In this document: one piece after another, positions 37,254-45,367 of the stretch
Numbering within the stretch: position 1 is the stretch's first letter
Layout: each line of letters starts with the position of its first letter
From: Escherichia coli
GTDB lineage: Bacteria > Pseudomonadota > Gammaproteobacteria > Enterobacterales > Enterobacteriaceae
Reading direction: 5' to 3' (one strand)
Assembly: GCF_024700885.2 (NCBI RefSeq)
Contig: NZ_CP117016.1
DNA length: 64,000 bases
Translations under genes and position numbers: made by a program
Notes under the pieces: generated by a model
Seen by the model: the letters and a program-made list of their open reading frames with translations, nothing else
The model's database searches: none
What the model was told of the DNA's origin: nothing

Positions 37254-37284
37254 ATAAAAAAAACCGGGTTTCCCCGGTTTTTGG
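37254..37284. terminator. Bidirectional rho-independent terminator immediately 3' of trpS
   Basis: aaaaaaaaccgggtttccccggtttttgg: a perfect hairpin flanked by A- and T-runs. Confidence 0.8.
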
Positions 37285-37297
37285 CATTAATGTTAAA

Positions 37298-42061: not shown

Positions 42062-43150
42062 TTACGCTGATTGACAATCGGCAATGGCGTTAAGAACAAG
42101 CTCGTGCGAAACGCCGCTGCGAACTTCACTCTTACCAATTGCCAACGGAAGAATTAAGCGCATCTCTCCCGCAAGGACTTTCTTGTCACGCAGCATATGC
42201 GGTAAATACGCCTGCGCAGACATTTCGCGCGGCCCATTGACCGGTAACCCAGCTCGCGTGAGCAGGGTTATAATACGCTGCGTTTCGGCAGAACTAAACT
42301 GCCCGAGACGTTCCGACGTCCGCGCCGCCATCACCATACCCGCAGCGACCGCTTCACCGTGTAACCAATTGCCATACCCCATTTCAGCTTCAATGGCATG
42401 ACCAAAGGTGTGTCCCAGATTCAGTAAAGCACGTAACCCGGTTTCGCGCTCGTCGGCGGCGACAACTTCTGCCTTCAGTTCACAACAACGGCGAATACAG
42501 TACGCCATTGCCGGACCGTCCAGACGCAACAACGCATCCAGATTCTCTTCCAGCCAGTTGAAAAACGCACCGTCAAGAATAATGCCGTATTTGATGACTT
42601 CTGCCAGCCCCGACGCTAACTCACGCGGGGGAAGCGTTTTCAGACAGTCGAGATCCACCACCACTGAAGCAGGCTGGTAGAACGCGCCAATCATGTTTTT
42701 ACCGAAGGGATGGTTGACCGCAGTTTTGCCGCCAACGGAGGAATCGACCTGCGACAGTAACGTCGTCGGGACTTGAATGAAACGTACACCGCGCTGATAA
42801 CTCGCCGCCGCAAAGCCGGTCAGATCGCCCACTACGCCGCCGCCAAGCGCCACCAGCGTAGTATCGCGACCATGCGGCTTTTGTAACAACGCCGTAAAGA
42901 CGGTATCGAGTACAGCCAGGCTTTTATACTGCTCGCCGTCAGGGAGGATAACGCTATCGACGTTAACACCCGCCTGTTCAAGTACGCCGCGGACCTTATC
43001 GAGATACAGAGGAGCCAGGGTTTCGTTGGTGACCAACATGACCTGCTCGCCCGATTTCAGCGGTAAGAATGAAGCTGGTTCATTAAACAAACCAGATGCG
43101 ATGGTAATTGGGTAACTACGTTCCCCGAGAGTAACGACAATCCTCTCCAT
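42062..43150 (-). CDS. aroB: 3-dehydroquinate synthase AroB, 362 aa
   Basis: Translation [24 protein letters not shown]... matches remembered AroB. Confidence 0.96.
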
Positions 43151-43206
43151 AACGCGACATCCACCTTAATTACTGTACCCGCAGACGAGTGTATATAAAG
43201 CCAGAA

Positions 43207-43728
43207 TTAGTTGCTTTCCAGCATGTGAATAATCTGGTTTGCGACCACTTTAGCGCTTTGATCATCAGTACGAATGGTCACGTCGGCAATCTCTTCATAC
43301 AGCGGATTGCGTTCATTGGCCAACGCTTCCAGAACTTCACGCGGCGGTGTTTCAACGTGCAGCAACGGGCGTTTTTTATCACGCTGCGTGCGTGCAAGTT
43401 GCTTTTCGATGGTCGTTTCAAGATAAACGACAACGCCACGTGCGGAAAGACGGTTACGTGTTTCGCGGGATTTCACAGAGCCGCCGCCAGTAGCCAGCAC
43501 AATACCCTGTTTCTCGGTCAACTCATTGATGACCTTTTCTTCGCGATCGCGGAAGCCTTCTTCGCCTTCTAAATCGAAAACCCAGCCCACATCAGCTCCG
43601 GTTCGTTTCTCAATCTCTTGATCGGAATCGTAAAATTCCATATTGAGTTGTTGAGCTAACTGGCGCCCAATAGTGCTTTTTCCGGCACCCATAGGCCCAA
43701 CCAGAAAGATATTGCGTTTCTCTGCCAT
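43207..43728 (-). CDS. aroK: Shikimate kinase I AroK, 173 aa
   Basis: ORF track 43207..43929 is open for 67 codons upstream; the start at [21 protein letters not shown] (P-loop) gives 173 aa. Confidence 0.93.
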
Positions 43729-44128
43729 TTTTTCGGTACTACTAAGACTATTCGTTAATGATAAACCCGCTTCGCTCAGAGAGCGCCGCAGGACATGAAC
43801 TGAAACCTCATAAGATATTGCGAGAGTCAGACTGAAAATTATCTCAATACTCCAGCGGGTTTGGCAACTGAATAAATCACCCATCCCTCTGCATATCTGG
43901 TCGCTGCAAGCGCGCTGCCTTGCTACCACCGCTCTGGCGATAAATCACCGGGTAAGATTAGCGTAAAAAAGACAGCAAAATGCCGCCTGAATGATAAATC
44001 ATCATCATGGAACGCAGGCAGCGAAGAGCACCAACTCTCAAATCGGTACTCCTTGTATGCTAAATACCTGCGCGCGTCAAATAGATGAAACACGTTCAGC
44101 GTAAAAACATTACCGCTTTTACGGCTGT

Positions 44129-45367
44129 TTACTCACTGGAAACCAGTCGTGGCGTGATAAACACCACTAACTCGCGTCGTTCATCTTCTTTTCCGTCATG
44201 ACGAAATAATTGTCCGAACCAGGGAATGTCGCCAAGCAACGGTACGCTATCCTGACCCGATTTATTTTTACGGGTAAAAATGCCACCCAGCGCCAACGTT
44301 TCTCCGCTTTTGACCTCGACCTGCGTTTCGATCTCCTGCTTATCAATCGCCAGCACTTCGCCATCGGCCTGCTGTAGCACCTGCCCCGGAACGTTCTGGC
44401 TGATGTGTAATTTCAGCCGGATGCGACCTTTTTGTAACACCGTGGGCGTAACTTCCATCCCCAGGACGGCCTCTTTAAATTCCACCGACGTCGCGCCACT
44501 TTCCCCGCTGGAAACCTGATATGGAATTTCGCTCCCCTGTTTAATGCTGGCGGGCTGAAGATGTGAGGCCAGCAGACGCGGACTGGCGATAATATCCAGC
44601 TGCTGTTTTTGTTCGAGCGCGGAAAGCTCAAGATCCAGTAAACGTCCGTTGATGCGTCCAATGTTAAAACCGACATGCGTTGTCGCCGTCGCTACGGAGA
44701 GGTCGCTGCCAAGCGTGGTGACTTGCCCAACGCCACCAGCGTGTTGCGCATCAGCCAACGTCCATTTCACGCCTAACTCACGCAAACTTTTTTCATTAAT
44801 GGTGACAATATGCGCCGACAGCTCAACCTGCCCGACCGGCAGATCCATTTGCGCTACCCACTGTTCAAGCGCGCTTAACGCCGTTTTGTTATCTCGCAGC
44901 AAAAGGCGATTAGTGCGTTTATCGACGGTCATACTCCCTTTGGCACTCAGTAGCTTCTCCCCCGCTTTCGCCAGTTCTCCCGCGTCGGCGTATTGCAGGG
45001 TTATACTGCGATTTTCCAGCGGCAGATTTGCCTGCGCCCGCGCCTGCTCCGCCTCCTGACGGGCGATATTGTCATTCTGCCAGGCAACGGAATGCACCGA
45101 GAGAATGTTGCCCTCCTGACGCGTTATCAGTCCGGCGCTTTTCACTACAGTTTGTAGTGCTTGCTTCCAGGGAACATCTGTTAGATGTAACGACACCGTA
45201 CCGCTGACGTCTGGCGACACCACCAGGTTCAACTTCTCCTGTTCAGCCAGCGCCTGCAACACCTGAGCTACCGGAACGTCATCCACCATCAGTGTCACTT
45301 TTTGCGGCTTTGCCGCCTGTACGCCGGGTATCAGCATCAACAGTAGTGCGGCTATCCATTGCTTCAT
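44129..45367 (-). CDS. hofQ: Secretin-family outer-membrane protein HofQ (PilQ/ComE-like), 412 aa
   Basis: Signal peptide plus C-terminal secretin-like region; matches remembered HofQ. Confidence 0.93.
   Translation of the reverse strand: MKQWIAALLLMLIPGVQAAKPQKVTLMVDDVPVAQVLQALAEQEKLNLVVSPDVSGTVSLHLTDVPWKQALQTVVKSAGLITRQEGNILSVHSVAWQNDNIARQEAEQARAQANLPLENRSITLQYADAGELAKAGEKLLSAKGSMTVDKRTNRLLLRDNKTALSALEQWVAQMDLPVGQVELSAHIVTINEKSLRELGVKWTLADAQHAGGVGQVTTLGSDLSVATATTHVGFNIGRINGRLLDLELSALEQKQQLDIIASPRLLASHLQPASIKQGSEIPYQVSSGESGATSVEFKEAVLGMEVTPTVLQKGRIRLKLHISQNVPGQVLQQADGEVLAIDKQEIETQVEVKSGETLALGGIFTRKNKSGQDSVPLLGDIPWFGQLFRHDGKEDERRELVVFITPRLVSSE

Follow-up and report, generated by a model that had tools for sequence, protein, structure and literature searches.

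The 400-bp hofQ-aroK gap of Escherichia coli is probably a non-coding control region of the aroK-dam gene row

Does the long stretch of DNA between hofQ and aroK in Escherichia coli encode an N-terminal extension of shikimate kinase 1, or does it serve to control the genes that follow? The window analysed here is a stretch of 64,000 nucleotides of E. coli DNA, in which the hofQ-aroK gap is 100% identical to that of K-12 MG1655 and contains no annotated feature. The gap comprises exactly 400 bp (43729-44128) between the stop codon TAA (44131-44129) of hofQ (44129-45367) and the coding sequence of aroK (43207-43728; start codon ATG 43728-43726; 173 aa; RefSeq b3390); these genes and all features described below lie on the minus strand. 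An initial annotation had pointed out that the aroK frame stays open upstream of the accepted ATG and that the gap is unusually long, and had suggested that it may hold distal aroK promoters or a regulatory leader. We consider it likely, with a probability of roughly 0.85, that the gap is a non-coding region which controls transcription and translation of the aroK-aroB-damX-dam-rpe-gph-trpS row and that the open frame is a coincidence.

Results

Size of the gap and of the open frame

Both initial observations were borne out. The mechanical ORF list contains an ORF of 240 aa with a GTG start (43207-43929), which corresponds to the 173 aa of aroK plus 67 codons. In all, 72 stop-free codons (43729-43944; 216 nt) precede the ATG; this stretch is closed by TGA 43947-43945 and includes the in-frame codons GTG 43929-43927 and ATG 43884-43882. 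The corresponding 64 kb of MG1655 contain 62 intergenic gaps with a median of 53.5 bp, of which the hofQ-aroK gap is the longest (next 378 and 319 bp); the open stretch is likewise the longest among 60 genes (next 58, 53 and 49 codons). The probability of an open stretch of at least 72 codons was 0.019 in 20,000 shuffles with the base composition of the gap and 0.020 when calculated analytically; at about 0.02 per gene, a set of 60 should contain approximately 1.2 such genes, and the open stretch is thus not beyond chance. The length of the gap is kept at 264-565 bp in 79 of 80 related Enterobacterales loci, and the value of 19 bp obtained for locus L036 is an artefact of a spurious 150-aa ORF. 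A tandem duplication was considered as the source of the extra 110 bp of Escherichia and was rejected: only a 10-nt repeat (GGTGATTTAT) was found, and 6 of 500 shuffles scored equally. Tn5 insertions in the aroK-hofQ gap of Salmonella have been published to be selected against in the same way as those in dam and damX.

The extension of the aroK frame

Translation of the aroK extension is not supported, and neither is the open frame as a biological feature: it is confined to Escherichia, carries no coding signature and has its start codons 5' of the inferred transcription start site. Among the Enterobacterales loci compared, the 72-codon open frame occurs in four Escherichia sequences only; in 76 of 77 loci of other genera it closes after 1-53 codons (in the majority 9-40, most commonly 27, 9 or 18), the exception being L033 with 133 open codons. 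Comparison with E. albertii revealed 7 differences in the extension, distributed 3/1/3 over the codon positions (2 synonymous, 5 not; these are small counts), and 12 differences in the aroK coding sequence, distributed 2/0/10. No homologue of residues 1-67 of the 240-aa ORF was found; shikimate kinases of the PDB align from residue 68 on, and PDB entry 1KAG represents the 173-aa form of AroK. At the accepted aroK start, ATGGCAGAGAAA is invariant in 80 loci. ATG 43884 is located just 5' of the A/T tract of the promoter described below, and together with GTG 43929 it lies upstream of this conserved promoter, while no in-frame ATG, GTG or TTG is present in the leader (43833-43729). Current RefSeq annotation shows no coding sequence over the extension in 30 sampled genomes. 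Over the extension, all of 5425 matching E. coli genomes show an identity of 99% or more, so that population data are uninformative on variants that break it. RNA that reads through from upstream would include ATG 43884 and GTG 43929, and this may allow rare translation of the extension.

The main promoter

A promoter is present at 43838-43878, with an A/T tract (43877-43871), a -35 element TTGCCA (43867-43862), an 18-bp spacer and an extended -10 element TGaGATAAT (43846-43838). In a promoter scan this site scored 10 of 12 consensus matches plus the TG motif, as is characteristic of extended -10 sigma-70 promoters, and it (43867-43838) is found in identical form in 80 of 80 loci, including those of Yersinia, Salmonella and Enterobacter. 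Judged from the position of the -10 element, the main start site would be at about 43833-43831; the SMRT-Cappable-seq and Kim 2012 supplements contain no matching mapped aroK start site. A 3' end determined by Term-seq at 43800 indicates that RNA is present just downstream of the promoter. The region upstream of it (43885-43964) is an unconserved, lineage-specific filler, in which column identity across the 80 loci is mostly 3-30% and reaches about 60% near 43891; substitutions within Escherichia cluster there. The filler harbours the in-frame stop codon and the GTG, and its lower edge abuts the in-frame ATG 43884-43882.

The leader RNA

The 5' untranslated region of aroK would then consist of approximately 105 nt (43729-43833) and is free of in-frame ATG, GTG and TTG. 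It begins with an invariant segment (43800-43830) for which RNAalifold predicts a weak helix P1, CUGA.CUCU...GAGG..UCAG. P1 was rejected as a stable 5' hairpin: its fold yields just -4.1 kcal/mol (z = 0.1) and its sequence shows no variation, which leaves it unproven. The RNA 3' end mapped by Term-seq to the last base of this segment (43800, position -72; MG1655 3519136) has a Rho score of 0.49 and an intrinsic-terminator score of 2.68.

A short putative upstream ORF that begins with MRFQF (43776-43811) offers two potential in-frame start codons, ATG1 at 43811 and ATG2 at 43796, the latter after GAGGU and with an anti-SD duplex of -6.3 kcal/mol. A regular-expression search detected ATG1 in 75 and ATG2 in 52 of 80 loci; L005 and L044 alone were left unscored, and the alignment shows ATG2 in L044. 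The stop codon of the uORF is located within hairpin P2 (43766-43792; CCUGC-GG-CGCUC-UCU-GAGCG-AA-GCGGG), which folds at -16.3 kcal/mol (z = -2.85). A hairpin is present at this position in nearly all of 42 distinct sequences folded, and it covaries: three of the five basal pairs have changed on both sides, and 92% of the cells are paired. Classical attenuation by a Phe/Trp/Tyr leader peptide was rejected for the uORF, which has two Phe codons, no Trp or Tyr and varies between genera after residue 5. P2 was also rejected as an attenuator terminator; in E. coli the sequence after it reads UUUAUCAUU, and no 3' end beyond it is listed by Term-seq.

The remaining 37 nt before the start codon (43729-43765) form the ribosome-entry region, which is A/U-rich, unstructured (-0.6 kcal/mol), free of a Shine-Dalgarno (SD) sequence and mostly 90-100% identical in 80 loci. 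The anti-SD duplex of aroK amounts to +0.1 kcal/mol, compared with -6.8 to -8.5 kcal/mol for hofQ, aroB and damX. A plain model of a promoter plus an untranslated region accounts neither for the 40 invariant nt with which the leader starts nor for the lack of an SD sequence.

The distal block, hairpin H1 and the terminator

Further upstream, a block of invariant sequence at 44039-44081 (TTTGACG-N10-TTAGCATACAAGG-AGTACCGATTTG) shows 95-100% identity per base in 80 loci and is promoter-like (TTGACG, 17 bp, TACAAG). As a sigma-70 promoter it is poor: it matches the consensus at 9 of 12 positions, lacks T6 and was not called by the promoter scan; an alternative -10 element, TAGCAT, is separated from TTGACG by just 12 bp. 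No consensus of sigma-E, sigma-32, sigma-28 or sigma-54 promoters fitted the block by eye. In an ungapped alignment of 32 loci RNAalifold found no conserved structure (0 consensus pairs), and the fixed spacing in these loci fits a DNA site. The block probably represents the second named aroK promoter.

Downstream of it follows hairpin H1 (44024-44053), in which AGGAGUACCGAUU pairs with AGUUGGUGCUCUU over 13 bp, with an SD-like AAGGAG buried and the UUG partly paired. H1 is strong in Escherichia, Salmonella, Citrobacter and Pluralibacter and weak elsewhere. Next comes an intrinsic terminator (43965-44022) with a stem GCUGCCUG...CAGGCGGC (44022-43982; an outer stem of 8 pairs plus an inner helix), followed by AUUUUGCUGUCUUUUUU. 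The combined fold of H1 and the terminator reaches -33 kcal/mol (z = -4). In agreement with termination at this site, Term-seq mapped an RNA 3' end to 43974 (MG1655 3519310), 8 nt past the stem, in three growth conditions; Salmonella has an analogous terminator site consisting of a hairpin and a U-tract. No Rfam match was obtained at E-values up to 1 in 43000-44800 or in the loci of Salmonella, Citrobacter, Enterobacter and Yersinia.

The end of hofQ

A weak hairpin with a T-run follows hofQ (44103-44125); it is a terminator-like match, conservation of its T-run (44107-44103) across 80 loci is 86-98%, and it is probably the hofQ terminator as judged from its sequence. No Term-seq 3' end is reported at 44103-44125. 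The stop codon of hofQ is overlapped by a predicted CpxR-type box (44118-44132), a perfect tandem repeat GTAAA-CAGCC-GTAAA (GTAAACAGCCGTAAA) of the form GTAAA-N5-GTAAA upstream of the promoter. As a conserved feature the box was rejected: it is present in the window only and in none of 40 other loci with the distal motif, among them three other Escherichia. Activation of aroK by CpxR has been described in a review.

Discussion

We assume that the gap is organised as follows. After the end of hofQ, the weak hairpin with its T-run is reached, and in E. coli the putative CpxR-type box overlaps the hofQ stop codon. The promoter-like block at 44081-44039, invariant throughout the order, probably starts a short transcript, which in the clade of Escherichia, Salmonella and Citrobacter would fold into H1 and stop at the terminator (3' end 43974). 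This terminator would insulate aroK from transcription that arrives from upstream, leaving read-through alone. Some 90 bp of unconserved filler would separate it from the main promoter (TTGCCA, 18 bp, TGaGATAAT), from which transcription presumably starts near 43833. The resulting leader of about 105 nt would present the invariant 5' segment, the covarying, GC-rich P2 and the invariant, unstructured and A/U-rich stretch of 37 nt, and the ribosomes would reach the aroK ATG through this SD-less stretch; we infer that this is how the leader supports translation of aroK. The initial interpretation stands in part. Its suggestion that the gap holds promoters or a leader is correct: a conserved sigma-70 promoter, a conserved leader (about 105 nt) in which a hairpin covaries and a distal promoter-like block are present, and aroKp1, aroKp2 and control by CpxR are on record in the literature. 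The 400 bp do not constitute one leader, however: the 5' untranslated region is only the last ~105 nt, and the distal block is separated from the main promoter by the terminator (3' end 43974).

Two alternatives would assign a coding function to the gap. A longer isoform of AroK, starting at ATG 43884 (225 aa) or at GTG 43929 (240 aa), might be made from transcripts that start upstream; we regard this as extremely improbable. It is true that the frame is open over 72 codons, that AGAGGG (anti-SD duplex -6.3 kcal/mol) precedes ATG 43884 and has no counterpart at the accepted ATG, and that both forms occur among database proteins (e.g. AAN82598.1 and UniRef A0A024L0B1), the 225-aa form on at least 1000 contigs. 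However, such entries are the output of gene callers and no evidence of a protein, and AGAGGG directly abuts ATG 43884 with a spacing of zero. The restriction of the open frame to Escherichia, substitutions without third-position bias, the lack of a homologue of residues 1-67 and the location of both start codons 5' of the conserved promoter, with the intrinsic terminator (43974) 5' of both, all speak against a longer protein; moreover, the RefSeq start was revised to the 173-aa form (YP_026215.2), and nothing is annotated over the extension. It is also highly improbable that the gap hides a gene for a small protein, either a 27-codon ORF after AAGGAG-N7-TTG (44041 on) or a 56-aa ORF at 43923-44093. 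For the former, the SD sequence is strong (anti-SD duplex -8.0 kcal/mol) and is spaced 7 nt from the TTG; AAGGAGTACCGATTTGAG is invariant in Enterobacteriaceae, and the 56-aa ORF is present in the mechanical ORF list. The peptides after the TTG, however, share neither sequence nor length between genera, the 13-bp H1 hides the SD and pairs part of the TTG, and the mapped 3' end at 43974 comes before the stop codon of this ORF. We rejected it on account of the unconserved peptide and the SD sequence hidden in H1. The 56-aa ORF contains seven consecutive codons without synonymous change in the AAGGAG-bearing loci of Enterobacteriaceae next to unconserved flanks, and it was rejected for these invariant third positions beside unconserved sequence.

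Two further alternatives concern the RNAs themselves. The leader could be a regulatory device in which translation of the uORF (MRFQF...) opens P2 and thereby sets the number of ribosomes or polymerases that reach aroK, so that the aroK-dam operon would be under attenuation or standby control. We consider this possible but doubtful. Hardly any locus lacks both in-frame ATGs, the uORF stops in or just past P2 in the species examined, P2 covaries between flanks that are invariant across the order, the aroK start has no SD, and RNA 3' ends have been mapped at -72 and +59. On the other hand, ATG1 is changed to AAG in five loci, and both ATGs are missing from L005 (Superficieibacter). The uORF contains just two codons for Phe and lacks a run of regulatory codons, and the third positions of its first codons never vary, which indicates a constraint on the nucleotides rather than on a peptide. 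The sequence that comes after P2 in Erwinia and Pantoea, GGGGUAUCAUU, does not qualify as a U-tract. Beyond P2 there is no mapped 3' end, and the end at -72 is not Rho-dependent and remains below the threshold for intrinsic terminators. GcvB does not regulate aroK, the published result on such control being negative. The distal part of the gap, in turn, could be an independent gene for a trans-acting sRNA of about 77 nt, with the block as its promoter and 5' end and with H1 and the terminator as the RNA. The stable fold of two hairpins (-33 kcal/mol, z = -4), a 3' end that was mapped in three conditions and classed as 'orphan', the strong conservation upstream of and at the putative 5' end and the analogous hairpin and U-tract in Salmonella are in agreement with such a gene, which we nevertheless rate as unlikely. 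The loci of E. coli, Salmonella, Citrobacter, Enterobacter and Yersinia gave no Rfam match, H1 and the terminator are absent or weak beyond the clade of Escherichia, Salmonella and Citrobacter, and the U-tract is interrupted (AUUUUGCU). The putative sRNA is not known to bind Hfq or ProQ or to act on a target, and it has no known 5' end. The end at 43974 could equally come from hofQ read-through or from attenuated aroKp transcripts, and the minus-strand Term-seq counts are all high and do not gauge abundance.

The preferred reading, a non-coding control region, thus attaches little importance to the open frame as such: it amounts to meeting the known aroK-dam promoter region again, and the aroK promoters (aroKp1/aroKp2) and control by CpxR are largely known already. 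Of wider interest is that two near-invariant non-coding blocks, the leader with its hairpin and the TTGACG...TACAAGG block, precede the operon for Dam, DamX and shikimate kinase throughout the order, and that both are unannotated and absent from Rfam. Should one of these blocks turn out to be a regulatory switch, it would be relevant to the control of Dam by growth rate and to the mecillinam and tazobactam phenotypes linked to AroK. Tentatively, and against the odds as we see them, the aroK leader with its invariant 5' segment, the MRFQF uORF, P2 and the SD-less entry region might represent an undescribed cis-regulatory RNA that tunes aroK-aroB-damX-dam, is conserved across the Enterobacterales and is not in Rfam, the distal block and the terminator also giving rise to an unannotated RNA of ~77 nt in E. 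coli and Salmonella.

Comparison with known systems

Two promoters of aroK, aroKp1 and aroKp2, are named in EcoCyc/RegulonDB, and aroKp2 is also named in a CRISPRa supplement. The two sites described here resemble them in being two in number, 5' of aroK and on the same strand; the strong one would fit the extended -10 site at 43867-43838 and the weaker one the distal block, and we infer the assignment of p1 and p2 to the two blocks from this. The named promoters are reportedly P1 and P2 of Lobner-Olesen, Boye and Marinus 1992.

With the attenuators of pheA, pheST and trp the leader shares a short, Phe-containing uORF that overlaps a GC-rich hairpin 5' of a gene of the aromatic pathway. It differs from them in that it has only two Phe codons, that many genera lack the U-tract and that no alternative antiterminator pairing is seen. 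The entry region recalls SD-less initiation via protein S1 and ribosome standby: its 37 nt are A/U-rich, unstructured and without an anti-SD match, and a stable hairpin is located just 5' of them; this resemblance is one of sequence only. Insulating intrinsic terminators resemble the element at 43974 in their GC-rich stem and U-rich tract, in a mapped 3' end and in their location, with an upstream operon or distal promoter on one side and the main promoter on the other, but the U-tract of the hofQ-aroK element is interrupted, and the element is specific to a clade and not order-wide.

The open frame finally has its parallel in N-terminal start calls that are too long, in which a chance upstream ATG with an adjoining SD-like sequence is preferred over an authentic, SD-less start. 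The 225- and 240-aa AroK entries of the databases probably arose because the authentic aroK start has no Shine-Dalgarno sequence; as in other cases of this kind they are widespread, and the RefSeq start has since been revised. The artefact is of a known type and is corrected in current RefSeq. aroK differs in nothing from such cases and is a textbook example, which makes it a clean test case for start-site prediction.

The hofQ-aroK gap and the upstream open frame

The region between the hofQ stop codon and the aroK ATG (43729-44128, read on the minus strand) is a control region and not coding sequence, as evident from a conserved promoter, a covarying hairpin, a terminator with an in vivo 3' end and an absent coding signature. 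Of 5426 complete E. coli genomes, 5425 match a 701-nt query across it, under hofQ and aroK and with 95-100% identity. By Blast against MG1655 the window is collinear with NC_000913.3 except for small indels, with an exact offset at aroK-hofQ (window = MG1655 - 3,475,336). Over the gap, identity to K-12 is 100%; the aroK sequences show 4 differences and the hofQ sequences 22, and MG1655 carries no annotated feature at 3519065-3519464. Elsewhere in the window, identity to MG1655 is 95.6-98%; small indels at ~29673-29711 and 37280-37296 comprise a 157-bp offset over the first 29.7 kb and a break near the yhfZ-trpS gap.

The initial annotation regarded the gap as unusually long, and at exactly 400 bp it indeed ranks first in length among 62 gaps of the corresponding MG1655 segment (median 53.5 bp). 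Its length is conserved within the Enterobacterales, which our locus comparisons cover: 79 of the 80 loci fetched with AroK have a gap of 264-565 bp, and the scripted value of 19 bp for the remaining locus, L036, results from a spurious 150-aa ORF. Equally correct was the observation that the aroK frame stays open upstream. The ORF at 43207-43929 (minus strand) encodes 240 aa, namely aroK (173 aa, ATG 43728) and 67 codons from a GTG, and the stretch without stops, delimited by a TGA at 43947-43945, comprises 72 codons. This is the longest upstream open frame among 60 genes of the matching MG1655 stretch. At least 72 open codons have a probability of 0.019 in shuffled sequence and 0.020 by an analytical estimate, so that roughly one gene in 60 should have such a frame; it is within chance.

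The upstream extension is non-coding

An extended AroK is represented in the databases: a 225-aa form is present as a protein on at least 1000 contigs, and a 240-aa form occurs in CFT073, UTI89 and Shigella records. 'Shikimate kinase' entries of both lengths from the 43207-43929 frame (minus strand) are found, for example, for CFT073, UTI89, Shigella flexneri and O145:H28. These calls likely arise because the authentic ATG (43728-43726) has no Shine-Dalgarno sequence (anti-Shine-Dalgarno pairing of +0.1 kcal/mol; hofQ, aroB and damX range from -6.8 to -8.5) and a chance ATG at 43884 adjoins AGAGGG (-6.3 kcal/mol). An open stretch of 72 codons is confined to the window and three other Escherichia genomes. 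Among 77 loci of other genera, L033 alone keeps a longer open frame (133 codons); in the rest it is closed after 1-53 codons, most commonly 27, 9 or 18. Compared with E. albertii, substitutions by codon position are 3/1/3 in the extension (2 synonymous, 5 not) and 2/0/10 in the aroK coding sequence; a third-position excess is absent among the few extension substitutions within Escherichia. Shikimate kinases of the Protein Data Bank align with the 240-aa ORF from residue 68 onwards only, and the E. coli AroK structure 1KAG is the 173-aa form. The in-frame ATG 43884 and GTG 43929 both lie upstream of the conserved main promoter, and the aroK leader contains no in-frame ATG, GTG or TTG. In a sample of 30 genomes from the whole collection, current RefSeq annotation places no feature over the extension, and the K-12 AroK entry is a revised one (YP_026215.2). 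The extension is non-coding. An N-terminally extended AroK isoform and small protein genes within the gap were both considered as candidates and rejected.

Main promoter, a candidate distal promoter and a putative distal RNA

The main aroK promoter (43878-43838, minus strand) consists of an A/T tract followed by TTGCCA (43867-43862) and, after a spacer of 18 bp, TGaGATAAT (43846-43838). Its consensus score is 10/12, it belongs to the extended -10 sigma-70 class and all 80 loci have it; transcription would start near 43833. Lobner-Olesen, Boye and Marinus (1992) reportedly mapped five dam promoters, of which the major one lies upstream of aroK. Two CRISPR activation papers name the EcoCyc promoters aroKp1 and aroKp2. 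In a Salmonella Tn-seq study, insertions in the aroK-hofQ gap were counter-selected in the same way as those in dam and damX, which fits disruption of an operon promoter.

The proposal that the gap may hold aroK promoters or a regulatory leader stands for the conserved main promoter and leader; a distal promoter is tentative. The candidate is a block TTTGACG-N10-TTAGCATACAAGG-AGTACCGATTTG (44081-44039, minus strand; also written TTTGACG-N10-TTAGCWTACAAGG) with 95-100% per-base identity over 80 loci. In 32 aligned loci across the order it has almost no indels (gap-free in nearly all) and RNAalifold found no consensus pair, as is characteristic of a site acting at the DNA level, for example a promoter. 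Its hexamers, TTGACG and TACAAG, are 17 bp apart, and since the atypical -10 lacks the usual final T the assignment is tentative. The block may represent a weaker second promoter. A perfect CpxR-type consensus box, GTAAACAGCCGTAAA (44132-44118, minus strand), overlaps the hofQ stop codon (44131-44129) and was found in none of the other loci examined, including three other Escherichia loci. According to a review, CpxR activates aroK transcription; because the box lies ~75 bp upstream, the block is possibly the CpxR-responsive promoter in E. coli. hofQ is followed by a weak hairpin and a T-run (44107-44103, minus strand; 86-98% conserved).

In E. coli a 13-bp hairpin, H1 (44053-44024, minus strand), buries AAGGAG and part of a UUG. 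It is followed by an intrinsic terminator (44022-43982, then AUUUUGCUGUCUUUUUU), and both fold together at -33 kcal/mol (z ~ -4). An analogous hairpin followed by a U-tract occurs in Salmonella; Enterobacter and Yersinia have no equivalent. Term-seq located a 3' end at MG1655 3519310 (window 43974, minus strand), 8 nt past the terminator stem, in all three growth conditions, and its authors classed it as 'orphan' (Adams et al. 2021, PMC7815308). The two-hairpin RNA ending there (43974-44053, minus strand) measures ~77-80 nt; it may represent a small RNA that lacks annotation, or else a promoter-distal transcript cut short by attenuation. Transcripts from the distal block would mostly end at 43974, and the terminator would then also shield aroK from hof-operon read-through. 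The following ~90 bp are filler of mostly 3-30% identity that carries the stop and the GTG of the open frame, with the in-frame ATG directly at its lower edge. Two copies of the 10-nt sequence GGTGATTTAT (43940-43949 and 43872-43881, minus strand) lie 68 bp apart, the second one abutting the main promoter -35 region; a longer duplication could not be detected, and 6 of 500 shuffles score equally.

The aroK leader

The leader (~43833-43729, minus strand), whose first ~40 nt are almost invariant, contains a GC-rich hairpin, P2 (43792-43766; -16.3 kcal/mol, z = -2.85), that forms with different bases in almost every one of the 42 distinct sequences folded. Both sides have changed in three of its five basal pairs, and the paired fraction is 92% of cells, against 26-46% in slid controls; no shuffle out of 500 reached the covariation score. 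Compensatory changes across genera include CCUGC/GCGGG, CCCGCCGC/GGCGGGGCGGG and CCUGUCC/GGACGGG. P2 has no Rfam entry, and the gap did not match any Rfam family. The last 37 nt (43765-43729) are unstructured (-0.6 kcal/mol), lack a Shine-Dalgarno sequence and are mostly 90-100% identical over 80 Enterobacterales loci. We assume that ribosomes load on this A/U-rich stretch downstream of P2, which would replace the Shine-Dalgarno sequence.

A putative uORF of 11 residues (43811-43776, minus strand) overlaps P2 and has its stop inside the hairpin. A regex search detected its first ATG (43811) in 75 and a second, in-frame ATG (43796) in 52 of the 80 loci, with only L005 and L044 unscored; the alignment shows the second ATG in L044. 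Nearly all 80 loci carry at least one of the two, and almost all have the rare AGG as second codon. A leader-peptide attenuator was considered and rejected. Term-seq also reports a 3' end at MG1655 3519136 (window 43800, -72 from the aroK ATG) with a Rho score of 0.49 and an intrinsic-terminator score of 2.68, from which it is probably a processing product, and a strong one at 3519005 (window 43669, minus strand), +59 inside aroK, in all three growth conditions (PMC7815308). According to a published negative result, aroK is unaffected by GcvB regulation.

As far as we searched, no description was found of the leader, which is invariant across the order and carries the covarying hairpin and the uORF, or of the short distal RNA, and we consider it rather unlikely that these form a specific regulatory device. 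The aroK promoters and the classic over-long start-codon call are already known.
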